This document shows positions 1,516-62,567 of a stretch of DNA of 64,000 nt, piece after piece. Numbering within the stretch: the stretch's first letter is position 1; each line of letters opens with the position of its first letter. This DNA is from Patescibacteria group bacterium (GTDB lineage Bacteria; Patescibacteriota; Microgenomatia; UBA1400; PJMF01), in contig JBMORP010000006.1 of NCBI GenBank assembly GCA_049322655.1, positions 384,410 to 448,409 of the forward strand, given 5' to 3'. Under the pieces are notes generated by a model that did no database searches, was not told the DNA's origin, and saw nothing but the letters and a program-made list of their open reading frames with translations. A program made the translations under genes and the position numbers.

Positions 1516-2250
1516 GTGTTAAAACAAGTCAGGTTATTTTGTTGCTTAATTATTTTTTTAAAAATCTTTACTCAACCAAGCTTCGCTCAAATAACTATCT
1601 CTGAAGTTTATCCCAACCCCAAGAGTGAAGAGCTAGAGTGGGTTGAGTTGTTTAACCAAAGCAATCAAGATATAAACCTAGAAAATTGGCAACTCTGGGA
1701 TCAGCTCTCTAAACCTAGTCTTATCCACCAATTTACCACTGAAAAAATCATGGCTAGTAGTTACTTGATCATTGAACTTAAAAATGTCCTAAATAACTCT
1801 GGCGATAGCGTCATTATCTATAATGATCAACAACAAATCCAAGATTCTTTAACTTATGACAATTCAGCAAAAGGCCTGAGTTGGTCAAAAAATTTCCCTA
1901 ATCTAGAAATAACCATGACAGAACCTTCACCAAATAAACCAAACCTTTTTCCAACACCCACCTTATTACCCACTAACATTCCAACTCCTCAGCCGACTCT
2001 TAAAGCACCAGTTCCTACAATATCCATACCAACTACTTCTAGTTCAAATCTACCACCTATAAAAACCCACTCCTATCCGTCAACTCTTCTTCAACCAACC
2101 ATTGATTTACCCCAGCAGAAGTTTAGAGCTCTCCAAACTATTTTTTTTGAGCCTCCCCAACTCGAGCAAGGAGCAATTAGTGTTATAATAGGTGGTCTTT
2201 TGCTGCTCATTCCAGGCTTTATTTATGCAAAAAAACAAGAACTATTTTAG
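1516..2250 (+). CDS. Lamin-tail-domain (LTD) protein with signal peptide, Pro/Thr-rich linker and C-terminal TM anchor
   Basis: N-terminal hydrophobic leader. ITISEVYPNPKSEELEWVELFN matches the LTD core. The PTPTLLPTNIPTPQPT linker is low-complexity. The C-terminus is hydrophobic and ends in KK. The start codon is probably non-ATG. Confidence 0.5.
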   Translation: MLKQVRLFCCLIIFLKIFTQPSFAQITISEVYPNPKSEELEWVELFNQSNQDINLENWQLWDQLSKPSLIHQFTTEKIMASSYLIIELKNVLNNSGDSVIIYNDQQQIQDSLTYDNSAKGLSWSKNFPNLEITMTEPSPNKPNLFPTPTLLPTNIPTPQPTLKAPVPTISIPTTSSSNLPPIKTHSYPSTLLQPTIDLPQQKFRALQTIFFEPPQLEQGAISVIIGGLLLLIPGFIYAKKQELF

Positions 2251-32006: not shown

Positions 32007-33005
32007 TTAATTACGCAAGTATTTTTCCACGTTAGCGTTGTGCCCCTCCAAAGTAGTAGCAAAATGGATTTGGCCACTCAGGTCGTGCAGATAAAAAAGA
32101 GCTCCAGTATTAACTGGATTTAAAGTAGCTTTGATCGCATCTAAACCTGGATTGGCAATTGGTGCTGGTGGCAAACCAGGATACTTATAAGTATTAAAAA
32201 CCGAGTTTAGCTCTTTATCAGCTGCTGTAGGCGTAGGCCACCAAGTATCTTGAACCTGATCAAAACCCTTGATGTATTGTAAACTAGCATCAACTTGCAA
32301 AGCCATTCCGATCTCAAGTCTTTGCCATAATACTCCAGCTACTTTGGTCATTTGGTCATAACCTTTAGCCTCTCGTTCTACAATCGAGGCCATTGTTAAG
32401 ATTTCAGTTAAAGAATAATCACTCTGAGCTAAATCATCTTTTAAACCATTAATAATCTTCTTCTCGAAAGTCTGCTGTAATAATCTCACTAATTGCTCTG
32501 TGGAGATTTGTCTTGGCACCAAATAGGTATCTGGAAACAACCTGCCTTCTTGACCCTTGGTTAAACTCAAAAATTCTTCTTTAGAAAAACTCTCCAACTC
32601 TTGTTTAGCCAAACTGTCAGCAATTTCTTCTCGACGCCAGCCCTCGGGAATAGTCACCCATAAATCATAGGTCCCCTGAGTAAGTTTTTGGGCAACCTCT
32701 GCCGTAGTCATGCTTGGAGATAAATCAAAACTACCAGCTTGAATCTTTTGGGAAAGACCGTCTTTTTTGACAATAAATCTGAAAGCTAAAGCATTTTTAA
32801 TCAAGCCATTTTCTTTCAGTCTTTCACCAATTACTGATACAGCTTGACCCTTGGGAATCACAAAAACTTGAGTTTGAGTTAGTTGACTATTAACTGGGCT
32901 AACTAAAGTTAAAAAAACCATCCATAAAGAAATAACTACCAACCCCAAAAGTAATGGAATCAGAATCAAAAAACGTTTTTTAAAAATAAATTTTTTTTGC
33001 TTCAT
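32007..33005 (-). CDS. mltG: Endolytic murein transglycosylase MltG (YceG family)
   Basis: N-terminal TM followed by a YceG-like domain (ASIVEREA, LQVDASLQY). It lies downstream of ruvX as in Firmicutes-type neighbourhoods. Confidence 0.75.
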   Translation of the reverse strand: MKQKKFIFKKRFLILIPLLLGLVVISLWMVFLTLVSPVNSQLTQTQVFVIPKGQAVSVIGERLKENGLIKNALAFRFIVKKDGLSQKIQAGSFDLSPSMTTAEVAQKLTQGTYDLWVTIPEGWRREEIADSLAKQELESFSKEEFLSLTKGQEGRLFPDTYLVPRQISTEQLVRLLQQTFEKKIINGLKDDLAQSDYSLTEILTMASIVEREAKGYDQMTKVAGVLWQRLEIGMALQVDASLQYIKGFDQVQDTWWPTPTAADKELNSVFNTYKYPGLPPAPIANPGLDAIKATLNPVNTGALFYLHDLSGQIHFATTLEGHNANVEKYLRN

Positions 33006-33074: not shown

Positions 33075-33458
33075 TTAAAATTGCTGCTGCTCCAACCAAT
33101 TTTCCAAAATAATCGCTGCCGCAAAATGATCGATCGGCCCAGAACGAACTTTATGTTTGATTCCCTGATTTTGAAGTCTCTGCTCAACTTCGCGAGAACT
33201 CAATGTCTCGTCTGCAAACTCAACTGGAATTTCTGTCTTAGCTTTAAGCTCCCTCACAAATTCTTCTGTTTTGAGTGCCATCTCGTTTTCTGACAAACCT
33301 ACAATAATTTTTTGGGTTTCTTCTTGCTCAATAATCTTTAACAACTCTTCAAAAAGATTATCTTCATTAGCTAAAACTACTAATGGCACAGCCAAAGTTC
33401 CTCTAGAAACAGCCACACCTACTCTTTTAGTACCAAAATCAATTGCTAGATATGACAT
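33075..33458 (-). CDS. ruvX: Holliday junction resolvase-like protein RuvX/YqgF
   Basis: MSYLAIDFGTKRVGVAVS is an RNase H-fold N-terminus. I trimmed the start to the ATG that overlaps the sortase stop (TAATG). Confidence 0.85.
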   Translation of the reverse strand: MSYLAIDFGTKRVGVAVSRGTLAVPLVVLANEDNLFEELLKIIEQEETQKIIVGLSENEMALKTEEFVRELKAKTEIPVEFADETLSSREVEQRLQNQGIKHKVRSGPIDHFAAAIILENWLEQQQF

Positions 33459-34489
33459 TATTTGTCCTTTACTAGTTGTGCTGTAATTACTCCTCGTCTC
33501 AAATAAGTCCCCTCTGGAGTACAAGTTACCAGCTTTAATTGTCTAGTGTCATAACGCTGAGATAAAATATAAGTATCTGTAGGCTTAACTTCGGTTTTGC
33601 TTACCACTACATACGTATACTTAACTCCTTCTATAGTGACATAAATTTTGTCACCTTTTTCTAAAGTCATAATGTAACTAAAAATCGAGGTGTAACGCTT
33701 GGGATTAACTTCTTTTGGATTATAAAATTGCCGTAATACTGAATGGCCAAAAATCACTGGTGCACCAGCCTGACCTGGCAAGGCTGTACCAGGATACTGA
33801 ATCAAGCTTTTATTAAGGTCACTCCCACCTACGGCCACTAGCGCGTTAGCAACATTTACTTTGGGAATATCTAAAATATAAGAAGTTGGTTGGTTAGCTT
33901 CGCTTTCTTGAACAAACTCAGGTAAATTTTCTCCTTCAAACCAATTATTTAAGTTAGTGTAATCCAAGACAGAATCTAAAATTACTGGCTCATCATTATC
34001 TACTGCCACCCCAAAATCTTCTGCAACTAACCCCTGTGAGTCAGCTAAAGTAATTGGTGTTGAGTCTAAAATTTGATCAGGAGGAACAGGAGCTTTTAAG
34101 TTAATGGTGCTTCTGGAAAGATCATCAACATAGTAAGCCAAAATTGGATAAGTAGCACTACCAACCAAACTAATTCCTACCAACAACAAAACTGTCGGTA
34201 AAATTGCTGCCCCCATCCTAATTATTTTGGGAATTTTTTTCCTAAAGTTTTTCTTTTCGTACTCAACTTCTTTAGTCTCTTTCTTTTCAGCAACGGTTAA
34301 TCTTTTTGCTAATTTTTCAATTTTTTTTTCGATTTTAGCTAAAGAAACACCTTCTTTAATCGCTTCACGATAAACCTTAACCAAGTCCTGACGTTGGTTG
34401 TTAGATAGCGAAGAAGCGTGTTTACTCACTAGTTTTTTCCTGAATATTAATATTAATTCTATGATCTGCTTTAGGAACAGTAGAAACAA
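33458..34489 (-). CDS. Sortase family transpeptidase (long cytoplasmic N-terminus, TM, catalytic domain)
   Basis: VIFGHSV supplies the catalytic His, LKLVTCTP the TLxTC Cys, and LRRGV the Arg. The true start is probably downstream of the track start, which overlaps the upstream gene by 68 nt. Confidence 0.8.
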   Translation of the reverse strand: MFLLFLKQIIELILIFRKKLVSKHASSLSNNQRQDLVKVYREAIKEGVSLAKIEKKIEKLAKRLTVAEKKETKEVEYEKKNFRKKIPKIIRMGAAILPTVLLLVGISLVGSATYPILAYYVDDLSRSTINLKAPVPPDQILDSTPITLADSQGLVAEDFGVAVDNDEPVILDSVLDYTNLNNWFEGENLPEFVQESEANQPTSYILDIPKVNVANALVAVGGSDLNKSLIQYPGTALPGQAGAPVIFGHSVLRQFYNPKEVNPKRYTSIFSYIMTLEKGDKIYVTIEGVKYTYVVVSKTEVKPTDTYILSQRYDTRQLKLVTCTPEGTYLRRGVITAQLVKDK

Positions 34490-36701
34490 ACATCTTTGCT
34501 AAAGAAGGTTTAACCGAATAACTAGCTGCCCTAATTTCTGGTCTTTCAGTTGCTTTACCACTAACCGCTTCTAGAGGCAAACCTCGTAAAGCAGAAATTA
34601 GGTTATTTGGATCAAATTTTGGGAGAGCCCTAGCACTGACATTTGCTTCCAAGATTATCTGTGAACTGCTGGTAGCCTCTTCTCTGGGTGCCGTTAGGAT
34701 CTCTGGGTCATCATCAGTAAACTCATATCCAGCCGGTAAATCAGCTTTCAAAATCTCTACAGCCAATGGTTTAATATCCTCAGAAGAATACCGCACTGCT
34801 TCAAACTCCATCGTTAACTCTAAAGCCAGTTGGTCAGCTTCTTCGCCTAACTCTCCTCCATAATCAGCTTCAATCACTACCTGTTTGCCAGAAAGAACAT
34901 AATAAACACCATCTCCAGATTTATTAGCATAATCTTCCTGAGCTTTTTTAAATAACTCTTTCTTTAAATCATTTAGCACCAAAGTCTTATCTTCTTGAGA
35001 AATTACTCTTACTTCTCTACTAGAACCACCAGTAAAAGACTCCTTAACCAAGGCAGAATAAGTTCCTTGGTCATAATTAGCTACAGTTAACTCTCTCTCC
35101 ACAGCCAAGTTACTTTCAGCACCAATTTTAGCAGCAGTTACTTGAGTATCAAGTTTGCCGTAATCCTTAGTTTCACTTGTCCCTGATTGGGTCACTTCAG
35201 CTGAAGCAACCGTAACTTCTTCATCCAAAGTAAAGTTTAGAGAACCAGAAGAAAAAACCGTTCCAGCAGTAAAAGTTTTTGGCGAAGTAGTTTTATTTAA
35301 AATCGTAATTTTGCCTTTGGCTTTTTCACCAACCAATTTAACTCCGGTAGTATCAGTTACTTTAGTCCCGTTATACTCTTCTACTTCCAACTCACCCCTT
35401 AAAGTTAAGTTTTCAACATTAGAAGTAGCCACCGTAGTATCAACCTTTAACTCAACTTCTTTGGCTATCACTCTTTCTGCTAATTCTACCGAAACTTCCA
35501 CTTTATAAGTAAAAACCAGACCACCAACTAATAAGGCAATTGAGGCCAAAAAACCACTCACCGCCCCTCCCAAAATTATCTTTTTATGAGGATGGTGATG
35601 ATACCAATGCAACAGTTTGTTCATTGGGCCAGACTTTCTATTAGTAAATTTTGTTGCCGTTTGGTTATTAGTTGAAACAAGTGGTTTTTTAACTAAATGA
35701 TTATCTCTTTCTTTTGGCAGCTCTTCTTGAGAAATTGGAATCCCAAAACTAGTTGCTTCTGCCTTTTGTTCAGAGGAACCAACTGAGGTAAAATTATCGC
35801 CAGCTAAATCAGTGTCAACATCAGAAAAACCAAAATCAACTGAGTCTGATGAGTCGACTTTCCCTTTTTCTAAAATTGATTCATCAACACCGTCAAGCTT
35901 TAAACCTCTGCTTTCAGCTACAGCCAAACCTCCTTGTTTAATCACTATCTCCAAAACTCGGTCAGCCATGATTTTTTCAATCAAAGGACTCTGTACAAAG
36001 GGGTGGTTATCTGCCCAATCATAATTAATGATTTTAGTTCTGATGTCTTGAAGGTCTAGATCAGTTAACACTAATGAAGCCAAAACCATTTTGGCTGGTA
36101 AGTAACTACCATCATCGGTTTTATCTTTATCAAATCTAGCTAGTCCCTCGACAATATCAGCTACCACATCATCAGATCGCCCCACCGAAATCTGCTGAGC
36201 TACTTTGCCTTTTTTCAACAAAATCAAAGATAAAGCAGCTTCCTGAATATAAATCAAGATTTGAGAAACAGTTTTTTCTCTAAAAAAAATATCTTGAATA
36301 ATCGCATCAGTCAGAACTACAAAGCCAACTGGTTTTAAAGATAAATTTTCTGTCAGTTTTTTGATAAAAGGACGTTTTTCTTTAACTAAACCATTATCAT
36401 TAACCCATTTGGGATCAAAACCAAACACCACTTCACTAACAGCTTCAGACTCCTTACCTAACTCTTTCAAAGCATCATCAGTGGCAATAATTGCCTCATC
36501 ATCATTGGTAAAAGTATAAAAAGCTGATTGCTGTTTAATCACCACTTGATTACCATCAACTTGCCAAAAAGCAGCTCTAACTCCATTTTCTGAAAAAACT
36601 AAACCTAAAAAAGCGTCTACAACCACTTCAGTCGCTGATGACTTTGATTTTTTGCTAATAAAGGGCAGATTTAATGACATAAATTTTTTTGAATACCACA
36701 A
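34422..36701 (-). CDS. Large bitopic membrane protein (roughly 750 aa): N-terminal cytoplasmic domain, single TM, C-terminal extracellular Thr/Val-rich domain
   Basis: One strong hydrophobic segment (KKIILGGAVSGFLASIALLVGGLVF) lies mid-protein. The N-terminal segment VVVDAFLGLVFSENGVRAAFWQVDGNQVVI resembles the first beta-hairpin of actin-fold (FtsA/PilM-like) proteins, but I did not find the glycine-rich phosphate motifs. The start is TTG at 36701 or ATG at 36680. Confidence 0.5.
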   Translation of the reverse strand: MWYSKKFMSLNLPFISKKSKSSATEVVVDAFLGLVFSENGVRAAFWQVDGNQVVIKQQSAFYTFTNDDEAIIATDDALKELGKESEAVSEVVFGFDPKWVNDNGLVKEKRPFIKKLTENLSLKPVGFVVLTDAIIQDIFFREKTVSQILIYIQEAALSLILLKKGKVAQQISVGRSDDVVADIVEGLARFDKDKTDDGSYLPAKMVLASLVLTDLDLQDIRTKIINYDWADNHPFVQSPLIEKIMADRVLEIVIKQGGLAVAESRGLKLDGVDESILEKGKVDSSDSVDFGFSDVDTDLAGDNFTSVGSSEQKAEATSFGIPISQEELPKERDNHLVKKPLVSTNNQTATKFTNRKSGPMNKLLHWYHHHPHKKIILGGAVSGFLASIALLVGGLVFTYKVEVSVELAERVIAKEVELKVDTTVATSNVENLTLRGELEVEEYNGTKVTDTTGVKLVGEKAKGKITILNKTTSPKTFTAGTVFSSGSLNFTLDEEVTVASAEVTQSGTSETKDYGKLDTQVTAAKIGAESNLAVERELTVANYDQGTYSALVKESFTGGSSREVRVISQEDKTLVLNDLKKELFKKAQEDYANKSGDGVYYVLSGKQVVIEADYGGELGEEADQLALELTMEFEAVRYSSEDIKPLAVEILKADLPAGYEFTDDDPEILTAPREEATSSSQIILEANVSARALPKFDPNNLISALRGLPLEAVSGKATERPEIRAASYSVKPSLAKMFVSTVPKADHRININIQEKTSE

Positions 36702-36765: not shown

Positions 36766-38637
36766 TTACTTCTTTAACCTAGCGTAAACTCTTCTCACTC
36801 CGGCTGCAGCTGATTTTTCTTTGAAAATCTCGATTGCTCCAATTTTTCCAGTTTGAGTGACATGGGGACCACCACAAAACTCTTTAGAAATAGTTTGACT
36901 GTCATCACCAATTTGATAAACACTTACTTCGTCTGGATATTTCTCAACAAAAAAAGCTAAGGCTCCATCTGCCAAAGCGGCCTGTTTCTCCATCATTTTT
37001 TTGCTAACTGGCAAGTCAGCCTTAATCCAAGCATTGACCTGATCTTCAATTTGTTGCAGTGCCTCTTTGGTTAAAGCTTGATCATAGGTAAAATCAAAAC
37101 GTAAACGCTGAGCATTAATATTAGAACCTTTTTGACTAACCATCGTTCCCAGTATTTTTCTCAAAGCAGCATGAATTAGGTGTGTGGCAGTGTGAAACTT
37201 AACTGTTATTTCAGAATGATCTTGCAAACCACCTTTGAACTTACCAGCCGAAGCCGTTCGAGATTTATCAGCATGTTGGTGTTTTACTTGCTGAAACTTT
37301 GCTGCAAAATTATCTTCAATTTTTAAAACTCTTGACTCTGCTTCTTCTAAAGATAGTTCTAACGGAAAACCATAGGTTTCATAGAGAGTAAAAGCTAATT
37401 CAGCCGTTAGTTTTTTACTAACTTGAGTAGATTTATCAAACTCTTTCAATCCTTTATCTAAAGTACGCAAAAATTTTTGCTCTTCCTGACTTACCACCTG
37501 TTTAATTTTATCTTGTTGATCAGCAACTTGAGGATAAGCCTGATAATAAATCTCAACTACTCCAGAAACTAACTCCGCCAAAAACTGTTGCTTAATCCCC
37601 AATTTCATTCCATAACGAACTGCTCTTCTCAATAAACGACGAACAAAATAACCTTGGTCTTTATTACCAGGGAAAACTCCATCTGCGATCAACATCACCA
37701 CTGCTCTCATATGATCAGCAATTACTCGAAAGGCCACTGCCTCGGTTTCATATTTTTTATTAGCTAAATTTTCTAACCTATTTACCACAGGTGAAAATAA
37801 ATCAGTCTTAAAAACATCTGGATCACCATTCACGGCAGCCAAACTTCTTTCCAAACCACCACCAAAATCAATGTTTTTCTGAGGCAGTGGCTCAAATCCC
37901 TGATCTGTCTTGAGATACTGCATAAACACTGAGTTACCAATCTCCAGAAACCGACCGCAATCACAATTCACATGGCAAGGTTGGTTTTCCCACTCAGATT
38001 TTTCATGTAAACCCAGTTCTTCACCAAAATCATAAAAAACTTCACTGTCTGGGCCACCAGGTTCACCGACCGGCATGTTTTCTGGAGCACCAGCTCTAGA
38101 CCACCAGTTATTGTTGCCATAGGGAAAAATCCTACCATGACTAAGGCCAACTTGGTCAGCTTGATCTACCACTTGAGCATCGATCTTATGCTGAGCAAAT
38201 AATTCCTGCCAGATTTTAATGGCCTCTTCGTCTTTGGGGATTCCTAGCTCGTCATTACCTTGGTAAACAGTTACATAAAGCCGTTCCGGGTCTAAAGACA
38301 TTTCTTCGGTAAGAAACTTGAAATACCAGTTCAATTGTTCTTTTTTAAAATAATCACCCAGAGACCAATTGCCCAACATCTCAAAAAAAGTGGTATGACG
38401 ATTGTCACCAACTTCTTCAATATCTTGGGATCTAAAACATTTTTGTGAATCAGCAATCCGAGTCCCTTTGGGATGCTTATCGCCCAAAAGATAATTAATC
38501 ATTGGTTGCATTCCAGAACCAGTAAAGAGAGTGGTTGGATCGTTTTCTGGTACCAATGGAGAAGATGGCACAACCACATGCCCATTTTTTTTACAAAAAT
38601 CTAAATATTTTTGACGTAATTCTGCAGCTTTCAACAT
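36766..38637 (-). CDS. alaS: Alanine--tRNA ligase, short form lacking the C-Ala domain
   Basis: FTGSGMQPM matches the class II core. Editing-domain motifs HTATHLIHAALRKILG and CGGPHV are present. It is 623 aa against about 870 in E. coli. Confidence 0.9.
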   Translation of the reverse strand: MLKAAELRQKYLDFCKKNGHVVVPSSPLVPENDPTTLFTGSGMQPMINYLLGDKHPKGTRIADSQKCFRSQDIEEVGDNRHTTFFEMLGNWSLGDYFKKEQLNWYFKFLTEEMSLDPERLYVTVYQGNDELGIPKDEEAIKIWQELFAQHKIDAQVVDQADQVGLSHGRIFPYGNNNWWSRAGAPENMPVGEPGGPDSEVFYDFGEELGLHEKSEWENQPCHVNCDCGRFLEIGNSVFMQYLKTDQGFEPLPQKNIDFGGGLERSLAAVNGDPDVFKTDLFSPVVNRLENLANKKYETEAVAFRVIADHMRAVVMLIADGVFPGNKDQGYFVRRLLRRAVRYGMKLGIKQQFLAELVSGVVEIYYQAYPQVADQQDKIKQVVSQEEQKFLRTLDKGLKEFDKSTQVSKKLTAELAFTLYETYGFPLELSLEEAESRVLKIEDNFAAKFQQVKHQHADKSRTASAGKFKGGLQDHSEITVKFHTATHLIHAALRKILGTMVSQKGSNINAQRLRFDFTYDQALTKEALQQIEDQVNAWIKADLPVSKKMMEKQAALADGALAFFVEKYPDEVSVYQIGDDSQTISKEFCGGPHVTQTGKIGAIEIFKEKSAAAGVRRVYARLKK

Positions 38638-38709: not shown

Positions 38710-39045
38710 TTAAACTCCTTTAAAAAGATTTTGTTTCTTTTGCGCTCTGGTAATTGAAACAGCTTTTGTTTTGGCTGCCTTATCTAGTTTTAGAGACTCA
38801 ATGTCACCTACAGCCTGATTTAAAATATCCTTAAATAACATCCATAAATCTTGTTCAGCATTCTCAATAGTCCCTTCCGCTAATAAATCCTTGACCGCCT
38901 CTTGCCAATGATCTTTAAGTTCTTGCCGCAACTTACCACCTTCATCAGTGCCAAACAAATACATCCCAATAGCACCGGCAGCTAAACCGACGCCAAACCC
39001 AGTCATAAAAGTTTGCTCAGAAAAATTATTTTTTCTTTGTGTCAT
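38710..39045 (-). CDS. YtxH-like small membrane protein
   Basis: N-terminal GFGVGLAAGAIGMYLF is followed by a helical K/E-rich region. Confidence 0.5.
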   Translation of the reverse strand: MTQRKNNFSEQTFMTGFGVGLAAGAIGMYLFGTDEGGKLRQELKDHWQEAVKDLLAEGTIENAEQDLWMLFKDILNQAVGDIESLKLDKAAKTKAVSITRAQKKQNLFKGV

Positions 39046-39313
39046 TTTTTCTCTTTGCTAACCAGCTGGTGAAAGACTCAAAAACCTTCACCCCAGTTTG
39101 CAGGCCACTAGCCAAGCCACCTAAGTTTTGCAAAGGAGCAACCAAAGCATTAATCTTGGCTTCAGCTTGATCAATGGTGGTATTAACCTTATGTAAAGTT
39201 TTTTTTACTTCAGTCAACACAAGAAAAATTTGGATCCCAACTACCGATAAAATAATCGTTAACAGAATAGCCACCACACTTAAAACTGTTGGAAGAATTG
39301 TTTCCATAAACAC
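39026..39313 (-). CDS. DUF948-like small membrane protein
   Basis: N-terminal TM (ILPTVLSVVAILLTIILSVVGIQIFLVL) followed by a coiled-coil region. Confidence 0.45.
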   Translation of the reverse strand: MFMETILPTVLSVVAILLTIILSVVGIQIFLVLTEVKKTLHKVNTTIDQAEAKINALVAPLQNLGGLASGLQTGVKVFESFTSWLAKRKNDTKKK

Positions 39314-39393: not shown

Positions 39394-40041
39394 TTAAAAA
39401 CGAACAAAAACGGTCCGTTGCTCGGTATTTTTCTTTTCCTGACGATCAATCGCTTCAATCGTAATAGTTGACATCCCTTCATTGGGCAAAGTGAGATTTG
39501 TTTCAAAAAAACCATCAGCCCTAACTGGCACAGGTTGAGCATTAATCAATAACCTTGTTTCTGGTTCGGTCACCCCTTGAACTGTAACTTGAGGAGACAC
39601 CACTTCATTTTCTGCTGGTGAGTTGATCGTAATCTTGGGTGGAGAAATAAATGAATACCATCTAATCGCAATATAAGTAAATAAAATTAAAAAAACACCT
39701 ACCCCGCCCAAAAGGGTAAATCTCACTGAAGACCAAGAACCAGACTTAAGAACTGGTTTGAGAAATTCGTGAGGAATTAGCTGACCTTTGGCACTTTCTT
39801 TAAAGTCACGCCGTAACAAAGCTAACATTGGTTCCGGATCAAAGTTTAAAATTCTGGCGTAAGCTTTAATATAGCCTTTGACAAACACCGCGGCTGGCAA
39901 ATCTTCAAAACGGTTTTCTTCTAAGGCATGAATAAAGCCCTCTTTAACTCTAATTTCTTGAGCCAATTGAGTACGAGAAATTCGTCGCTTTTCTCGTTCC
40001 ATCTTGAGTAACTCACCCACTGTTTTGGTCTGCTGAATCAT
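39394..40041 (-). CDS. RodZ-like cytoskeleton protein (XRE-type HTH, TM, C-terminal domain)
   Basis: ISRTQLAQEIRVKEGFIHALEENRFEDLPAAVFVKGYIKAYARIL matches the RodZ N-terminal HTH. One TM follows. Confidence 0.65.
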   Translation of the reverse strand: MIQQTKTVGELLKMEREKRRISRTQLAQEIRVKEGFIHALEENRFEDLPAAVFVKGYIKAYARILNFDPEPMLALLRRDFKESAKGQLIPHEFLKPVLKSGSWSSVRFTLLGGVGVFLILFTYIAIRWYSFISPPKITINSPAENEVVSPQVTVQGVTEPETRLLINAQPVPVRADGFFETNLTLPNEGMSTITIEAIDRQEKKNTEQRTVFVRF

Positions 40042-40607: not shown

Positions 40608-40681
40608 GGCCAATTAGCTCAGTTGGTTAGAGCGCACGATTCACATTCGTGAGGTCACTGGTTCGAGTCCAGTATTGGCCA
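40608..40681 (+). tRNA. tRNA-Val (anticodon CAC)
   Basis: I folded the cloverleaf by hand. Acceptor stem GGCCAAT/ATTGGCC. D-arm GCTC-AGTTGGTTA-GAGC. Anticodon stem CACGA/TCGTG with loop TTCACAT (U33, anticodon CAC, A37). T-arm ACTGG-TTCGAGT-CCAGT. Discriminator A. No encoded CCA. Confidence 0.85.
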
Positions 40682-41361
40682 CAATTAAGTCACAAATTTT
40701 TTTTATTATTAACTTTGTGCCCTTGCTACCAAACCTCTTCAAACTGCTTTTTCCTCAGGCTTGTGTGATTTGCCAAAAAGAGAACTCTTTATTTTGTCCA
40801 GCCTGTCAAAACCAAATTGATTTTCTTTATTTTTCTCCTCAGCTAGAATCTCTTACCTATTATCAAACTAATCTTCAAGCCGTAGGATTTTATGTTGATC
40901 CACTAGCCAGTGTAATTAAAAAATATAAATATCAGGGCATTTATGAGTTAGCTCCAACTCTAGCTCAGTTACTCTACAAGCATCTTAAGTTTTCTGCTCA
41001 ACTTGACTACATCACTTATATCCCTTTGCATCCTAAAAAACAAAGACTCAGAGGCTTTAATCAGACCGAACTAATTGCCAAAGAATTAAGTTTATTAATT
41101 AATAAACCAGTCATTAATTTGTTTCATAGAAAATTTCACACTCAAAGTTTAGCTTCAACCAAAAATCAACAAGTTAGAGCAGAAGTTACCCAAAATGTTT
41201 TTAAGTTACAATATCAAGATTTGTCTTTTCTAAAAAGTAAACAACTATTAATTATCGATGACGTGGTCACCAGTGGGAATACTTTTGCTAGTTGTTTAAA
41301 ACTTTTAGAACCTTTGAAAATCAATAAAATTCAACTGATGACTTTAGCTCATGAGGGGTGA
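40675..41361 (+). CDS. comFC: ComF family protein (ComFC-type, zinc ribbon plus phosphoribosyltransferase fold)
   Basis: CVICQKENSLFCPACQ is a double Cys pair. The C-terminal PRTase motif LLIIDDVVTSGNT is present. The ATG at 40675 overlaps the last 7 nt of tRNA-Val, so the real start may be GTG 40717 or TTG 40723. Confidence 0.7.
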   Translation: MATIKSQIFFIINFVPLLPNLFKLLFPQACVICQKENSLFCPACQNQIDFLYFSPQLESLTYYQTNLQAVGFYVDPLASVIKKYKYQGIYELAPTLAQLLYKHLKFSAQLDYITYIPLHPKKQRLRGFNQTELIAKELSLLINKPVINLFHRKFHTQSLASTKNQQVRAEVTQNVFKLQYQDLSFLKSKQLLIIDDVVTSGNTFASCLKLLEPLKINKIQLMTLAHEG

Positions 41362-42406: not shown

Positions 42407-42817
42407 GGGGATGTAAAGCATCGACGTAACCGCTCTTTACCAATTGCAGACCATCTTTGACCAAGAAAGATGTAAAACAGGGTCAAAAACACAACTGCCA
42501 ATTCATTGCGCAGCAAAGTTGCTAATTTCGTAAATGAAGCCGTTACCGGTTTCAAATCCGCTTTTGCAACTCCAGCTCAGCTTTACGCTTAACTGGTATT
42601 CACAAGAGGGCTCTCATTGACGGAACCTTGTGGGTAACAACCTAGTCGATGTGCAGAAAGATATAATTACACGCTATTTTTCGAAGCAATTTGTGTAGAT
42701 TTCTTAAGGAAGGTCTGAAAGTTCACCTCTTAGGAAATATCAAAGACTTTCTAAGTCTGTAGAAGTTGGCAAAACGTGAGTTCACGGACGGGGGTTCATT
42801 GCCCCCCATCTCCACCA
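42407..42817 (+). ncRNA. ssrA: Transfer-messenger RNA (tmRNA, SsrA), one-piece
   Basis: The 5-prime end GGGGATGTAAAGCATCGACG pairs with the 3-prime CATCTCC-ACCA to give a 7-bp acceptor stem. The 3-prime region GGACGGGGGTTCATTGCCCCCCATCTCCACCA is the canonical tRNA-like T-arm plus CCA. Length is about 411 nt. A candidate tag reading frame ends at TAA 42590..42592 with ...ATPAQLYA. The resume codon is uncertain. Confidence 0.85.
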
Positions 42818-47739: not shown

Positions 47740-48051
47740 TTACTCAGACAAATCTTGAGCAAGCTTAACATTATTATATGTAGTCTTAGCTGCAGTTTCT
47801 ATATAGTTGTCTGCTAAATCAGTTAAATCGTCAGCAGCCTTATCCAAAGTATCTGCCATTTCACCATAGGCATAAGCAGAAACTTTTTCAACATCACCCA
47901 TTTTGGCTAACAACTGATCCACTTTACTAATATCTTCAGCTGACATTTGCTCTGGAATTGATGCTAATTCTTGGACAACTGCTTGATAGGTTTCTTCATC
48001 CAAACCTTGATTCTTAAGCTCTTCTAAAAGTTGTGTTTTTGTTGGTCCCAT
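47740..48051 (-). CDS. Hypothetical acidic helical protein (103 aa)
   Basis: Uninterrupted ORF rich in D, E and A, with no known motif. Confidence 0.45.
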   Translation of the reverse strand: MGPTKTQLLEELKNQGLDEETYQAVVQELASIPEQMSAEDISKVDQLLAKMGDVEKVSAYAYGEMADTLDKAADDLTDLADNYIETAAKTTYNNVKLAQDLSE

Positions 48052-48084
48052 TATATTGTTCTCCTTTTTTGATTAATAATTATT

Positions 48085-48747
48085 TTATTTGGCAAAATTC
48101 TTTAACCAACCTCTGACACCACCAAGAGATTGAGCATTTTGAGCTGCTTGTTGTTGTTTGGCTCTTTTCTCCAAGGCAGCCTGTTTGATTCTGTCCGCTG
48201 CAGTAACAACTTGCTCACCATCACTCTCTTGGCCTTCTTTAACTATTTGATTAGCTGCTTCTAAAAGAGACTTTACTCCTTCTGCGGCGGCCTTAAGAGC
48301 CGCTAATTTTACTTCTTCAACTTTAGCCTCAGCTCTAGCTGGTAAACTATCAATAAAAGCTGACAACTGATCCATTTTTTCTCCAGCCTTATTGGTTACA
48401 TCATAAGCTCCTTGAATCAAGTCAGCTTTAGCATCAGCTATTCCAACTTCAGCCCTAGTTCGAAGAGCATCCGCCCCATCAACAATCTTACCTGGCCAAG
48501 AAGCAACTTCTCCTGCTCCAGATTTGACTGTATCCCAAGCTTTTGCCCCAACTTCCTTAACCTTTTGCCAACGGGCAGCCCAAGTTTCTCTACTTTCCTG
48601 TCTCTTAGCATCTCTTTCAGCTTGACGTTGCTTGCCAGCATCTCTTTTATCAAAAGAAGTTTCTTTAGCCTTTCTTGCACTTTCTGAAGAGTATGTCTTA
48701 AGTACATCCCCCCTTAAAAATGGTTGTTGTTGTGGTTGTTCTCCCAT
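48085..48747 (-). CDS. Hypothetical protein with amphipathic-helix repeats (220 aa, Ala/Lys/Glu-rich)
   Basis: Repeated A-K-A-x-x-x-V-K segments are apolipoprotein-, phasin- or LEA-like. Local GC is higher because of Ala and Gly codons. Confidence 0.45.
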   Translation of the reverse strand: MGEQPQQQPFLRGDVLKTYSSESARKAKETSFDKRDAGKQRQAERDAKRQESRETWAARWQKVKEVGAKAWDTVKSGAGEVASWPGKIVDGADALRTRAEVGIADAKADLIQGAYDVTNKAGEKMDQLSAFIDSLPARAEAKVEEVKLAALKAAAEGVKSLLEAANQIVKEGQESDGEQVVTAADRIKQAALEKRAKQQQAAQNAQSLGGVRGWLKNFAK

Positions 48748-48778
48748 ATTTTCCTTTGCTTTTTTAATTACTTTGCTA

Positions 48779-49255
48779 CTAACTATTTAGTTTTTCTTTA
48801 TACCTATTCAACAAATCTAATGCAAAAGCTATGCCACTGCGATTACTAACTTTATTAAAGGTAGCAGGTGTTTTAACTGGTTTCAATGAGTTCAAAGCTT
48901 CAATATAAAAGTCAACCTGATCATACTTTGTCACTGGCGCCCTATTTTCAAATAAATCTTTTAAGCTAACATTGTTGATAGTTTTTCCCTCATAACTTTT
49001 GTGACTTTTTGAAAAATCACTCAGTAATTCCAATAGCTCATCTGCATCAGCTGTCTCTACTTTTCGATTATCTGCAAAAGAATCCAATAGTACTTCCAAC
49101 TCTACCAAAGGGTTAATATTAGAACTTGCTTGAGTTGTAACTCCAAAATTATGGCTCAATTTTTGGGCCACCTGTTTTTCAACTTCAACATTAATTAATT
49201 CCTTAATTTGCTTGGCAAATTGATCAAAAACTTGTTGAAATAATTGGTCATTCAT
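48779..49255 (-). CDS. Hypothetical protein (158 aa)
   Basis: Uninterrupted ORF in the same operon, with no recognisable domain. Confidence 0.4.
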   Translation of the reverse strand: MNDQLFQQVFDQFAKQIKELINVEVEKQVAQKLSHNFGVTTQASSNINPLVELEVLLDSFADNRKVETADADELLELLSDFSKSHKSYEGKTINNVSLKDLFENRAPVTKYDQVDFYIEALNSLKPVKTPATFNKVSNRSGIAFALDLLNRYKEKLNS

Positions 49256-49297: not shown

Positions 49298-50368
49298 CTA
49301 ATACCTAGGCATAAATATCTTAGCATTTTCTTTAGTAATAATCACACTAGCAAAACCACGCTCAACAATAATTCTAACTGCTTTACGAACAGCTCCCTGC
49401 AAAGTTCTTTGTAAAGTACGAATACCCATATCATAGCCCAAAGGACGAGTAATCATCTGCCAGACATCTTCACGAATCTCAAATTGTTCAGCACGAAGAC
49501 CAGCATCTTTAAGTAGTTTAGGCAAAATATATTTTTTAGCGATTTGAATTTTTTCGTGATCAGTATAAGAAGGCATGGTAATCTTTTCCATACGATCCAT
49601 CACGGCCGTTGCAATTTTAGTAGTGTTGTTAGCTGTGGCTAAGAAAATGGCATGACTTAAATTAACCGGATAATCAACATAAGTATCAGTAAAAGCATGA
49701 TTTTGCGCAGGATCTAGTAACTCCACCAACACCCCCATCAAATCCATATTAGCCTCTTCTGCCCCACGATCAATTTCGTCAAGTAAAATAACTGGGTTTC
49801 TCACTCCCACCTCACAAATCCCTTTAATCACTCTGCCTGGCTCAGAACCAAGTAACAACCGAGAATTTCCCCGTAACTCTTTAGCTGAACCCATTCCACC
49901 AAATGGAATACGTACCAACTTTCTACCCAAAGCTTCAGAAAGTGAATAAGCAAAAGTGGTTTTACCAGTACCCACCAAACCAACTAATAACAAAATTGGT
50001 GCTTTAAAATCATCATCTGGAGATTGAGTTTGGCGCAAATTTAAAACAGAAATGTACTCCAAAAAACGATCTTTAACTTCCTGCATACCATAATGGTGCT
50101 TATCAAAAACTTCTTTGGCTTTCTGGATATTAGTCGTATCTTGAGTTTCTTCGGTCCATGGAATCTTCAATACCCAATTAACATACCTCGAGACTTTTTC
50201 GTATTTTTCGTCATAACTACCCAATTCAATACTTCGCTCCAAAGCAATAATCTCTTTTTCTACTTTGGAACGCATTTCGTCAGGTAAAGTCGATTGATTA
50301 GTCTTATCTCTAAGATCTTGAATCTCTTGCTGGAGAACTTGCTTATAATCAGTCATGGGCAGTACCAC
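49298..50368 (-). CDS. Stand-alone Lon-type AAA+ ATPase module (no Lon N-domain, no S16 protease domain)
   Basis: Several blocks align to the LonA ATPase domain as I recall it. [13 protein letters not shown] aligns to [31 protein letters not shown] aligns to [64 protein letters not shown] aligns to [57 protein letters not shown] aligns to [49 protein letters not shown] and [28 protein letters not shown] also align. The ORF ends at 356 aa, before any protease domain. Confidence 0.75.
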   Translation of the reverse strand: [356 protein letters not shown]

Positions 50369-50372
50369 CTAT

Positions 50373-50966
50373 TTAATCTTCTATTTGTTGGGTTGGTTCC
50401 TCAACAGTTATTTCCTTTGGCTCTTGAATAGCAGGTAATAATTGTTGAGAAACTAAGCCCAAACCCATAAGAAACAAGCCACCAACTACCATGAGGAAAG
50501 TGTTTTCAATCCCACCGGCAACCGGTAGGGTTGTTTGTGTGCTTTCGGTCGCTCCACCGATGCCATACGTAGTGGTAGTAGTCGTAGTGGTGGTAGAAGA
50601 AGTGCTTTCAGATGTGCCACTATCAACCAAAATAACATAGTTTAATGTTTCCAAATTAGAAGCTACTCCCAACATATGGGCCCCATCTGCCAAAGCAGTC
50701 AAAGGGGTATAAGACCAATTTCCACTGGCATCAGCCAACACTGCTACAGTGAGGTCATCAATCGAAATATCAACAGTCGCTTCTGGTGAAGCTACACCAA
50801 TAATGGTGGGAGTGGTATCAGTGGTGTTGACATTAACTGATGAACCGACAGTAGTTCCACCAACACTAGTCACACTCAAAGTAGCTGCCACAACCAAACC
50901 CTTTGCCACAAACAAAAGAGTGACACTAATCAAAAAAACAACCAATAAACGATTAAATATATTCAT
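50373..50966 (-). CDS. Secreted Thr-rich protein with C-terminal LPVAG-plus-TM sorting-signal-like tail
   Basis: N-terminal signal or anchor (LLVVFLISVTLLFVA). A run of 11 consecutive Thr within a longer Ser/Thr-rich stretch. The C-terminus TLPVAGGIENTFLMVVGGLFLMGLGLV is followed by a charged tail. Confidence 0.5.
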   Translation of the reverse strand: MNIFNRLLVVFLISVTLLFVAKGLVVAATLSVTSVGGTTVGSSVNVNTTDTTPTIIGVASPEATVDISIDDLTVAVLADASGNWSYTPLTALADGAHMLGVASNLETLNYVILVDSGTSESTSSTTTTTTTTTYGIGGATESTQTTLPVAGGIENTFLMVVGGLFLMGLGLVSQQLLPAIQEPKEITVEEPTQQIED

Positions 50967-60648: not shown

Positions 60649-61134
60649 TTAAATAGTTAAAAAGCCATCAACTATTAACTGCTCAGCTTTATTTTTTTCA
60701 ATTCCTCTAGATTGGAGATAGAAAAGATGTTCCTCTGACAAAGTGGTAATACTGGCAGCATGAGAACATTTGACGTCATCTGTTTTGATTTCTAAATCTG
60801 GCACAGCCTCAGCCCTAGCTTGCTCTGATAACAACAACACCCGCTCAGTCAAAAATGACTGGGTATCCCCACAATCTTCATCGATAATAATCTTACCTTT
60901 AAGTTGTAAAGAAGAGTTATCTCTGGCAACCCCTTTCATCACTGTTTCTGCTTGAGTATGAGCTGCTTGGTGGTGAATCACTACCTCCAAAACTAAATGC
61001 TCTTTGCCACTGGTTTGAAAAACTCCTTTAACCATAACCGAGGCACCTTCACCTACTAATTCGATCAAATGTTTTCCTGATTCTTTCAAAATGATCTCTT
61101 GATGTTGGTTAGCAGTAATTTGATAAGTTTTCAT
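60649..61134 (-). CDS. sufD: Short SufD-like protein (161 aa; C-terminal SufBD-type region only)
   Basis: The C-terminal FYLQSRGI...AEQLIVDGFL matches the SufB C-terminus next door (FYLMSRGI..ARKMIVNGFI). Confidence 0.6.
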   Translation of the reverse strand: MKTYQITANQHQEIILKESGKHLIELVGEGASVMVKGVFQTSGKEHLVLEVVIHHQAAHTQAETVMKGVARDNSSLQLKGKIIIDEDCGDTQSFLTERVLLLSEQARAEAVPDLEIKTDDVKCSHAASITTLSEEHLFYLQSRGIEKNKAEQLIVDGFLTI

Positions 61135-61136
61135 CC

Positions 61137-62567
61137 TTAGCCAATTGAACCTTCCATCTCAAAATCAATTAACCGGTTCATTTCTACTGCATACTCTAAA
61201 GGTAGCTTCTTGACTAGATCAGCAATAAAACCATTCACAATCATTTTGCGAGCATCTTCTTCAGAGATACCTCTGCTCATCAAATAAAATAATTGATCAT
61301 CACCAATTTTGGACACGGTTGCTTCGTGTTGCACCTCAACTTGATTGTTAAAAACCTTGTCTTGTGGGTAAGTATCTGATCTAGATTTGTCATCTAATAA
61401 CAAAGCATCACAAACGACTGTATTTTTACTGTTTTTAGCATTTGGCCCAACATGAACCATGCCTCGATAACTAGCCCTACCACCATCTTTACTAATTGAT
61501 TTGGAAATAATGGTTGAAGAAGTGTTGGGCGCCAAATGAATTGCTTTAGCTCCAGTATCTTGGTGTTGACCTTTACCAGCCAAAGCCATCGATAACACCT
61601 CACCATGAGCTCTTTCTCCAGCCAAAATAAAGCCTGGATACTTCATGGTAACTTTGGACCCCATATTAAAATCAGTCCAAATCATTTTACCGTCAGCATG
61701 AACATAAGTTCTTTTGGTGACCAAGTTATAAATATTTTTGTACCAATTTTGTACTGTAGTATATTGGCAAGTGGCTCCTTCTTTCACCACAATCTCTACC
61801 ACTGCTGAGTGGAGTGAGGTAGAAGAAAATTGAGGAGCAGTACAACCTTCCACATAATGAACTGAAGCACCCTGATCTACAATAATTAAGGTTCGCTCAA
61901 ACTGACCAAAAGCTTCAGCATTGATTCTAAAATAAGTTTGGAGTGGCATCTTTACCTCCACACCAGGTGGCACATAAACAAAAGACCCTCCAGACCAAAC
62001 AGCCGTATTCAAAGCAGCGTACTTATTGTCGTTGTGAGGAATAACCTTCCCAAAATGCTCTTTAACTAGGTCTGGATATTTGGCTAAGCCTTCATCCATT
62101 GATAAGAAAATTACACCATCTTTCTCCCAGGTTTTCTTCAACGAGCCATAAACCACTTCGCTATCATACTGGGCTTTGACTCCAGCCAAAAAATCTCGTT
62201 CTGCCGCTGGGACACCAATTCGATCAAAGGTTTCTTTGACCTCTGGGGGAACATCTTCCCATGATTTGGCCTGACCTGCTGTTGGTTTAAGGTAATAAGA
62301 CAAATCATCAAAAGTTAGGGCTGATAAATCAGCCCCCCAACTGGGATTTTTTTTAACTTTAAATTCTTTAAAACCTTTTAATCTGTGTTCTAACATCCAA
62401 ACAGGTTCATTTTTCATTGCTGAAATTTGTTTAATCAAGTCTTCAGTCAAACCTTTGTCAGCTTGAAAAGCATAGTTTTTGGTATCAAAAGAATAACCAT
62501 GTTGGTAATCACCTTGGATAAAATCATCACCTGGTTTACTAGTTTTCTTCGCTGCGAATCTGGCCAT
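61137..62567 (-). CDS. sufB: Fe-S cluster assembly protein SufB
   Basis: 476 aa with a SufB core beta-helix. Confidence 0.9.
   Translation of the reverse strand: MARFAAKKTSKPGDDFIQGDYQHGYSFDTKNYAFQADKGLTEDLIKQISAMKNEPVWMLEHRLKGFKEFKVKKNPSWGADLSALTFDDLSYYLKPTAGQAKSWEDVPPEVKETFDRIGVPAAERDFLAGVKAQYDSEVVYGSLKKTWEKDGVIFLSMDEGLAKYPDLVKEHFGKVIPHNDNKYAALNTAVWSGGSFVYVPPGVEVKMPLQTYFRINAEAFGQFERTLIIVDQGASVHYVEGCTAPQFSSTSLHSAVVEIVVKEGATCQYTTVQNWYKNIYNLVTKRTYVHADGKMIWTDFNMGSKVTMKYPGFILAGERAHGEVLSMALAGKGQHQDTGAKAIHLAPNTSSTIISKSISKDGGRASYRGMVHVGPNAKNSKNTVVCDALLLDDKSRSDTYPQDKVFNNQVEVQHEATVSKIGDDQLFYLMSRGISEEDARKMIVNGFIADLVKKLPLEYAVEMNRLIDFEMEGSIG

Follow-up and report, generated by a model that had tools for sequence, protein, structure and literature searches.

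A membrane protein of Microgenomates, encoded next to a sortase, with predicted actin-type and baseplate-J-like domains

What is the large membrane protein that a member of the Patescibacteria encodes next to a sortase within a block of housekeeping genes, and do the two proteins belong together? The question arises from a 64-kb stretch of DNA (contig JBMORP010000006.1; the whole 64,000 nucleotides are called the window below), in which a sequence-only reading had recognized a sortase and a bitopic membrane protein of roughly 750 amino acids (aa) amid the alaS-ruvX-mltG neighbourhood. Open reading frames (ORFs) and Pfam confirm this layout; the large protein, here called BIG, has 752 aa. It presents known folds in an arrangement that we did not find described in the literature searched. 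Tentatively, and with somewhat less than even confidence, we propose that BIG and the sortase make up an envelope module of two genes that is conserved in Microgenomates and in which BIG would be a transmembrane scaffold acting with the housekeeping sortase in envelope assembly. The locus comprises the following genes and junctions:

36766-38637, minus strand: alaS, 623 aa, short form (Pfam tRNA-synt_2c PF01411 and PF07973; synteny)
34422-36680, minus strand: BIG, 752-aa bitopic membrane protein (ATG 36680, stop TAA 34424-34422)
34422-34429, minus strand: overlap of BIG stop and sortase start, 8 nucleotides (nt), GTGAGTAA (GTG and TAA; AGGA 8 nt 5' of GTG)
33458-34429, minus strand: sortase, membrane-anchored, 323 aa from GTG 34429 (Pfam PF04203)
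33456-33460, minus strand: overlap of sortase stop and ruvX start, TAATG (junction sequence AAATAATGTCA)
33075-33458, minus strand: ruvX, YqgF-type Holliday junction resolvase/RNase-like, ATG 33458 (PF03652, expectation value (E) 4.5e-31; TIGR00250)
32007-33005, minus strand: mltG, YceG-like endolytic transglycosylase (PF02618, E 1.3e-74; TIGR00247)

From 32.0 to 38.6 kb all genes lie on the minus strand, in the order alaS, BIG, sortase, ruvX, mltG, rpoB, rpoC, and 85 nt separate alaS from BIG. The uncorrected ORFs span 34422-36701 (large protein), 33458-34489 (sortase) and 33075-33524 (ruvX). For BIG the start was set to ATG 36680 rather than TTG 36701, because the homologues begin with MSLNLPF; for the sortase GTG 34429 is the most likely start. 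The TAATG overlap between sortase and ruvX had been read correctly: TAA (33460-33458) and ATG (33458-33456) have one A in common, in the context AAA TAATG TCA.

One clue to a connection between the two proteins is the distribution of their genes. A first protein search returned 122 BIG homologues of 690-790 aa. A profile search of 1.84 billion representatives of 50%-identity clusters gave 12,387 matches at E<=1e-3 and 4,303 at E<=1e-30, and the best 150 of the 12,387 span essentially the whole profile (687-825 aa). Full-length homologues with an undamaged frame number in the hundreds. By searches started from divergent members, BIG was found in Pacebacteria, Woesebacteria, Curtissbacteria, Shapirobacteria and Levybacteria. 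Homologues are annotated either as 'baseplate J/gp47 family protein' or as 'hypothetical protein', the latter being the only name that the cluster look-up returned. Among the matches listed, which for the profile search were the best 150 of the 12,387, all named members come from Microgenomates lineages. The BIG-sortase pair was not found described in the literature searched.

Gene order was checked by tblastn in 85 loci, namely 80 species-representative loci from a search with a 12-sequence alignment and 5 metagenome or genome loci, and 8 loci of divergent clades were examined with called genes and Pfam annotation. All of the 85 loci with enough sequence have the order RodZ-like HTH_25 ... 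alaS-BIG-sortase-ruvX-(0 to about 4.7 kb)-mltG-rpoB, with which the 8 annotated loci agree; in the 80 species-representative genomes, which share this order, BIG identity is 29-67%. Such an arrangement is far beyond chance. Over 88 loci, with BIG identities of 25-98%, the sortase directly follows BIG wherever the downstream sequence suffices. Levybacteria have ruvX outside the block and rpoB in inverted orientation; alaS-BIG-sortase-...-mltG is kept there and BIG and sortase overlap by 8 nt. Hence, the pair lies within the alaS-mltG block in every related genome examined, across the five lineages named above and with ruvX displaced in Levybacteria, and the alternative of a lineage-specific insertion fails, since the pair is kept in all related loci with enough sequence.

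The spacing of the genes was compared in 82 loci. Between the stop of BIG and the first codon at which the sortase could start, the distance has a median of -1 nt and is <=30 nt in 93% of cases. For the sortase and ruvX, measured from stop to start, the median is 15 nt, with 77% <=30 nt and overlaps in 8%. Consequently, the constant coupling is that of BIG with the sortase, and the TAATG overlap with ruvX is a local detail. The co-expression that had been deduced from this overlap is still supported by the tight or overlapping junctions, but the overlap itself is not conserved in the family.

GC content and skew over the BIG-sortase pair equal those of the flanks, and therefore the pair is not a recent insertion. 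In a scan from 31.6 to 40.7 kb, predicted promoters and terminators were no more numerous than in shuffled sequence, and none of the intergenic sites was convincing; this is compatible with one transcription unit and no proof of it. An Rfam scan of the block found no RNA elements.

Lineage-specific insertions into the block were also seen. An 807-aa Dockerin_1 protein lies between ruvX and mltG (L003 10422-12845), a 376-aa ORF on the reverse strand was found in another locus (L001 10737-11867), and a 508-aa ORF separates alaS and BIG in a third (L086 4449-5975). None of these insertions lies between BIG and sortase. Many of the GTDB representative records (L006-L085) are titled 'uncultured Pseudomonadales bacterium', 'Vitreimonas sp.' or 'Methylococcaceae bacterium'. 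These titles look mislabelled, because the short alaS, BIG and a synteny typical of the candidate phyla radiation (CPR) indicate Patescibacteria. In one of them (L006, CAYSQA010000004.1) BIG is 98% identical to that of the window, and this is probably the same species.

What kind of protein is BIG? Its parts, from the N-terminus to the C-terminus, are the following:

36660-36671, minus strand: N-terminal peptide motif NLPF, ahead of the first strand of the actin-type fold
35910-36617, minus strand: minimal ASKHA (actin/Hsp70/sugar-kinase) fold, residues 22-257, predicted from an AlphaFold2 model and Foldseek
35583-35909, minus strand: disordered acidic and Ser-rich cytoplasmic linker, residues 258-366, predicted from low model confidence beyond residue 258
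35826-35837, minus strand: linker motif DFGF
35733-35750, minus strand: linker motif SFGIPI
35505-35582, minus strand: transmembrane helix, residues 367-392, from hydropathy
34425-35504, minus strand: baseplate-J-like (gp6/gpJ/gp47 wedge-protein-like) multi-domain ectodomain, residues 393-752
35313-35351, minus strand: invariant ectodomain motif TTGVKLVGEKAKG
35010-35030, minus strand: invariant ectodomain motif GGSSREV

For the cytoplasmic part, an AlphaFold2 model of residues 1-300 was built on a 97-sequence alignment (predicted local distance difference test (pLDDT) 89.3, predicted template-modelling score (pTM) 0.83). In this model residues 22-257 form two successive beta-beta-beta-alpha-beta-alpha-beta-alpha subdomains, 1A and 2A. 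The first unit consists of strands 23-29, 33-42 and 45-51, helix 60-72, strand 83-88, helix 100-112, strand 116-122 and helix 123-134, and the pattern repeats over residues 140-257. The core has 236 residues and its inter-element loops are <=12 residues long; therefore BIG has no room for a 1B, 1C or 2B insertion. Foldseek against the PDB gave 798 matches at E<=1e-3, and the best 50 listed are almost all of the ASKHA fold. The best E was obtained for Ppx/GppA (4e-9) and the best template-modelling scores (TM-scores) for PilM (0.52) and FtsA (0.51). BT_3980, EutJ and YeaZ match too, and GspL is absent among the best 50 of the 798 matches. According to the model, the N-terminal domain thus has an actin-type fold that is not assignable to one subfamily.

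Sequence comparison gave no family for this domain. On the N-terminal domain, Pfam yielded 0 matches at E<=0.05, FtsA, SHS2_FTSA and PilM_2 included, whether in the window protein or in the 48 family members compared, NCBIfam did not match the N-terminal domain of the window protein, and its sequence profile found only spurious matches among PDB sequences (E>=0.19). In alignments of 20 and of 97 sequences the motifs DxG (phosphate-1), DxGGGT (phosphate-2) and GG (adenosine) are missing. At the nucleotide loops BIG has a variable beta1-beta2 turn, a YIQEAAL-type sequence at the phosphate-2 hairpin and L.S replacing GG. The invariant residues lie elsewhere in the domain (D68, W92, G119, G158, S169, D175, E178, R182, P195 and P232). 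From the sequence we infer that the domain is a nucleotide-free pseudo-ATPase for protein-protein contacts. The earlier suggestion of an actin-type fold without its glycine-rich motifs is hence borne out by the model, the Foldseek matches and the alignments.

The comparison with known ASKHA proteins shows what is shared and what is not. Minimal members, i.e. EutJ (3h1q), BT_3980 (3hrg), YeaZ/TsaB (4y0w) and the N-terminal half of Ppx/GppA (1t6d), have a two-subdomain core of ~235 residues without large insertions, as does BIG, and match it with a Foldseek probability of 1.0 and E of 4e-9 to 2e-7. Like YeaZ/TsaB, BIG also appears to be non-catalytic. In contrast to these proteins, it has no detectable sequence similarity to them and none of the phosphate-1, phosphate-2 and adenosine motifs, its domain is joined via a disordered linker and a transmembrane helix to an external domain, and it carries peptide motifs of its own. 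FtsA and PilM (7q6i and 5eox, the structures with the top TM-scores) resemble BIG further in being membrane-associated actin-fold proteins that join cytoplasmic machinery to bitopic envelope proteins. The stretches 'GFVV.TEA' and 'VGRS....D..EGLA' of BIG stand at positions which we take to be those of 'EP.AA' and 'GG...D' in FtsA, MreB and Hsp70. Unlike FtsA and PilM, however, BIG lacks 1C (the SHS2 insertion), 2B, the glycine-rich loops and any match to their profiles in the 48 members, and it is anchored by its own transmembrane helix, whereas FtsA uses an amphipathic helix and PilM the PilN peptide. The resemblance to FtsA/PilM-type proteins that had been noted therefore does not allow BIG to be classed with either; Foldseek ranks Ppx/GppA, BT_3980, EutJ, PilM and FtsA about equally.

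By hydropathy, BIG has a single transmembrane helix in 488/488 of the homologues of >=650 aa examined. In these 488 homologues the net charge is +2.9 upstream of the helix vs +1.0 downstream, and an N-terminal signal peptide was found in none. Because of the single helix, the charge bias and the missing signal peptide, BIG is predicted to have its N-terminus inside and its C-terminus outside. The topology proposed earlier, with a cytoplasmic N-terminal domain, one transmembrane helix and an external C-terminal domain, is thus retained. The external domain itself had been taken for a Thr/Val-rich beta-type domain; it is modestly rich in these residues (T 8.9%, V 9.4%) and is instead predicted to be a baseplate-J-like module.

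Three short motifs recur in the cytoplasmic part. The N-terminal one reads M.LPNLF or MNLPFIK elsewhere, overall M.LP(N/F)(L/I)F, and is shared by all clades, Levybacteria among them, with L5 and P6 unchanged throughout the family alignment. It may resemble the N-terminal PilN peptide that binds PilM, which is a lead only. In the linker, DFGF is present in 100/115 members of the Levybacteria group and in about 45% of the other members, and SFGxPI in 0/115 members of that group and in 55-63% of the others.

The ectodomain is among the best-conserved parts of BIG, with many invariant Gly, Asn and Asp residues. Its AlphaFold2 model has a pLDDT of 95.9, and the C-terminus (pLDDT 85-97) lies within a folded domain. 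BIG is consequently no low-complexity surface protein, which had been named as the outcome opposed to an ASKHA fold. Foldseek against the PDB returned baseplate proteins with E of 3e-7 to 1e-4, a probability of 1.0 and full-length alignments. The top match is the diffocin baseplate triplex 8v3w (8v3w_0; E 3e-7), followed by proteins of the phages phi812 (9euf), Mu (9ki1), A-1(L) (8kea), phiCD508, Pa193 and Milano; one sub-domain also matches the GlxA beta-barrel. In BFVD 43 matches were found at E<=1e-3, and the named ones are nearly all baseplate J or wedge proteins. Pfam PF04865 (Baseplate_J) scores 18.8 bits on the window protein vs a cut-off of 21.1 (E 1e-3), and at E<=0.05 it was found in 29/48 members of the family, the best E being 6.6e-8. 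The same annotation is precomputed for many BIG homologues.

The identity to the phage proteins is 8-16% and the global TM-score is ~0.2, which is low because the domains of the ectodomain are arranged differently from those of baseplate proteins. On the model, the ectodomain is distantly homologous over its full length to the wedge protein J of phage baseplates and is not a recent phage gene. As the module lies C-terminal to the transmembrane helix and the N-terminus is inside, it is predicted to be extracytoplasmic. Wedge proteins of ~350 aa (T4 gp6, P2 gpJ, Mu gp47, diffocin and phi812) align along the whole 360-residue ectodomain. Unlike them, the module of BIG is placed outside the cell membrane on a transmembrane anchor, and its locus has no sheath, tube, gpW or gpI-like genes and no contractile-tail or baseplate cluster; BIG is a cellular gene, present as a single copy in a housekeeping operon and inherited vertically.

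The second protein of the pair is a sortase (PF04203, 74.4 bits vs a cut-off of 26.6, E 9e-21). Its features are:

34217-34429, minus strand: cytoplasmic N-extension, residues 1-71, 23% Lys, with the conserved motif L..LYR.AL
34142-34216, minus strand: transmembrane helix, about residues 72-96
About residues 186-320: catalytic domain
33743-33745, minus strand: catalytic His229 in VIFGHS
33521-33523, minus strand: catalytic Cys303 in LVTCTP
33494-33496, minus strand: catalytic Arg312 in LRRGV

The three catalytic residues had been recognized from the sequence, and alignments agree: they are kept in 4 divergent sortases of the family and align to His, Cys and Arg of solved class C sortases (5k9a). 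An unusual Lys-rich N-terminus of roughly 100 aa had been noted as well. The richness in Lys is real, but the extension has about 71 aa and is normal for the clade, in which the sortases mostly have 313-328 aa and the L..LYR.AL motif; those of Levybacteria and some other clades are short (216-257 aa). A conserved DYT..NWF segment precedes the catalytic domain.

Assignment to a class by profile did not succeed. None of the NCBIfam class models reaches its cut-off (class C 43.1 vs 160, class D 33.4 vs 165, class E 38.3 vs 160, class F 24.5 vs 166), and the generic sortase model TIGR01076 alone passes (46.3 vs 39.35). Since the scores are far under every class cut-off, the enzyme is left unclassified. 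Among PDB sequences it matches the class C pilus sortases 5k9a and 6bwe best, with E ~4e-6. With sortases A-F (closest to class C, then D and E) it has in common the PF04203 domain, the His-Cys-Arg triad and the N-terminal membrane anchor; it differs from them in falling under all class cut-offs, in the conserved 70-aa cytoplasmic N-extension of most of its clade, in the DYT..NWF segment and in its obligate pairing with BIG. A sortase family near-ubiquitous in Microgenomates has been described (Méheust et al. 2019, PMC6744442), and the present sortase presumably is a member of it.

Is BIG a substrate of its neighbour? Hydropathy and the AlphaFold2 model give no C-terminal hydrophobic segment and no LPXTG-like signal in BIG. 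It was therefore rejected as a sortase substrate, being without C-terminal transmembrane helix or sorting motif and having a folded C-terminus. The sole good candidate in the window is encoded at 50373-50966 (minus strand). In this protein of 197 aa a signal peptide and a Big_13 Ig-like domain (E 1e-7) are followed by a poly-Thr stalk, the sequence LPVAGG and a transmembrane helix, with a tail that is acidic rather than basic. It is plausibly a sortase substrate with a non-canonical sorting signal. Two further candidates, small proteins with LPESG-ALENT, a transmembrane helix and K.KN tails, are encoded in two related loci (L076 149-634 and L082 78-575).

Directly downstream of the LPVAGG protein gene lies that of a Lon-like AAA+ ATPase (49298-50368, minus strand), in which AAA and Lon_lid domains and no protease domain were detected; downstream of this gene, at 47740-49255, three acidic or coiled-coil-looking proteins are encoded. 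The product of 1516-2250 (plus strand, 244 aa) has a Lamin Tail Domain (PF00932, E 2e-15) and a C-terminal transmembrane helix followed by KKQELF, with no LPXTG-like motif, and may be a tail-anchored surface protein.

How might BIG and the sortase act together? In the module that we tentatively propose, both membrane proteins would be made in fixed proportion and act jointly. The actin-fold pseudo-ATPase would serve as a docking platform for cytoplasmic partners, for self-association or for both, while the J-like ectodomain would oligomerise in the wall zone, as wedge proteins do in baseplates. BIG would be a partner of the housekeeping sortase rather than its substrate, and would position or regulate it while it attaches surface proteins of the LPx[AS]G type. 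Such activity may take place in zones of wall growth or turnover, beside MltG and the RodZ-like protein. The link of BIG to cell-wall anchoring is suggested by gene linkage only. A membrane factor encoded next to a sortase has a precedent in actinobacterial SafA.

Several points weigh against this proposal. BIG and the sortase could be in the operon simply because they are expressed along with housekeeping genes; alaS and ruvX are equally conserved neighbours and yet without an obvious role in the envelope. SFGxPI of the BIG linker and the N-extension of the sortase occur together in 50 loci, with the extension only in 25, the motif only in 3 and neither in 4, and these counts are confounded by phylogeny and truncated contigs. 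The loss of ATP binding by the N-terminal domain is deduced from its missing motifs. Oligomerisation of the J-like domain is proposed by analogy to baseplate proteins, to which its global TM-score is ~0.2.

If BIG and the sortase cooperate, they offer a testable entry into the anchoring of surface proteins and the organisation of the envelope in a major uncultured lineage, and a clear case of a phage structural protein recruited to a core cellular role. Most Microgenomates and other CPR bacteria have not been cultured, and little is known of the way in which their envelope is built. For the near-ubiquitous sortase family no partner or substrates had been known; the sortase examined here, presumably one of its members, is invariably paired with a large and strongly conserved membrane protein. 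If the two do not cooperate, BIG remains a high-confidence target for structural genomics among 'hypothetical' core genes.

A more far-reaching version of the proposed module, unlikely in its full form, would be a previously undescribed kind of trans-envelope machine specific to Microgenomates. There, copies of the exapted wedge module would assemble into a ring or lattice in the wall zone, mechanically coupled through the one transmembrane helix to the nucleotide-free actin-fold domain, which would dock on cytoplasmic filaments or other partners via the peptide motifs. The complex would organise where the sortase attaches surface proteins or where a surface structure is built. If this were true, a cell would re-use part of a phage tail for housekeeping at its surface.

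The proposed module has to be weighed against other explanations. BIG might be a component of the divisome or elongasome, an FtsA-, RodZ-, MreC- or FtsQ-like tether that links cytoskeletal filaments to wall enzymes such as MltG, in which case its link to the sortase would be operonic only. The top TM-scores of the N-terminal domain to PilM and FtsA fit this idea, as do the conserved synteny with MltG, the RodZ-like HTH_25 membrane protein and, further upstream, FtsK, and the single-copy, vertically inherited gene in a housekeeping block. However, it is the sortase, rather than MltG or the RodZ-like protein, whose gene is the invariant and overlapping neighbour of BIG: up to about 4.7 kb can be inserted between ruvX and mltG, and the block of Levybacteria has lost ruvX, whereas BIG and sortase are never split. 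Moreover, BIG has no 1C subdomain and no match to FtsA, PilM or MreB profiles, and a baseplate-J ectodomain is not known from any divisome protein. We consider a role of this kind rather unlikely.

It is improbable that BIG is the platform on which a secretion apparatus or a surface filament is assembled, with filament subunits that the sortase would polymerise or anchor. GspL and fused PilM-PilN have a similar layout, with a cytoplasmic nucleotide-free actin-like domain, a single transmembrane helix and an extracytoplasmic domain. This parallel, the rank of PilM among the best structural matches, the conserved peptide motif ahead of the fold and the weak sequence proximity of the sortase to class C (pilus) enzymes would all suit a platform. 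Against it, the external domain of BIG is J-like and not ferredoxin-like as in PilN, PilO and GspL, the conserved block has neither pilins nor a secretion or pilus ATPase nor platform genes, and the class C model gives 43 bits vs a cut-off of 160. The Pam pili of CPR bacteria, moreover, are encoded in a different operon and use donor-strand exchange and no sortase (10.64898/2026.03.03.709456).

Many sortase substrates are encoded beside their enzyme, and BIG has a large, beta-rich external domain of phage-tail origin; for these reasons a surface or adhesion protein processed or anchored by the sortase, or a host-attachment protein derived from a phage tail, was considered. With its folded C-terminus (pLDDT 85-97) and no hydrophobic segment or LPXTG-like signal there, with an ectodomain that is highly conserved, unlike those of fast-evolving adhesins, and with signal-bearing candidates encoded elsewhere, BIG is highly improbable in this role. 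That the J-like part is a prophage or tailocin remnant in a functionless, lineage-specific arrangement is scarcely credible: phage baseplate proteins are all that it matches in Pfam, PDB and BFVD, and NCBI labels some members 'baseplate J/gp47 family protein', but there are no other phage genes nearby, GC content and skew are as in the flanks, the same locus is found in 80 species-representative genomes and further metagenome contigs, the frame is intact in hundreds of strongly conserved homologues, and the J-like part is always fused to the transmembrane helix and the actin-fold domain. Composition and universal synteny thus led us to reject a prophage remnant or recent insertion.

Some observations concern the neighbours of the pair. 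The alanyl-tRNA synthetase encoded by alaS has the catalytic and SAD (editing) domains only, and the short form (592-628 aa) is also present in related loci; in one of these (L087) alaS was called as two genes. Upstream of alaS, on the minus strand, a RodZ-like protein (39394-40041) with HTH_25, one transmembrane helix and a Glucodextran_B Ig-like domain is encoded, as are two small membrane proteins at 39026-39313 (weak DUF948 match) and 38710-39045 (weak YtxH match). The HTH_25 gene is kept upstream of alaS in most related loci, often directly after ftsK.

Farther away in the window, a full-length transfer-messenger RNA is present at 42407-42817 on the plus strand (Rfam, 82 bits). ARAGORN did not report it and found only a tRNA-Val (40608-40682). 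A Suf cluster at 60649-62567 on the minus strand encodes a SufB/D protein of 476 aa, followed by a 161-aa SUFBD_core protein that matches the last 135 profile positions and may be a truncated SufD.

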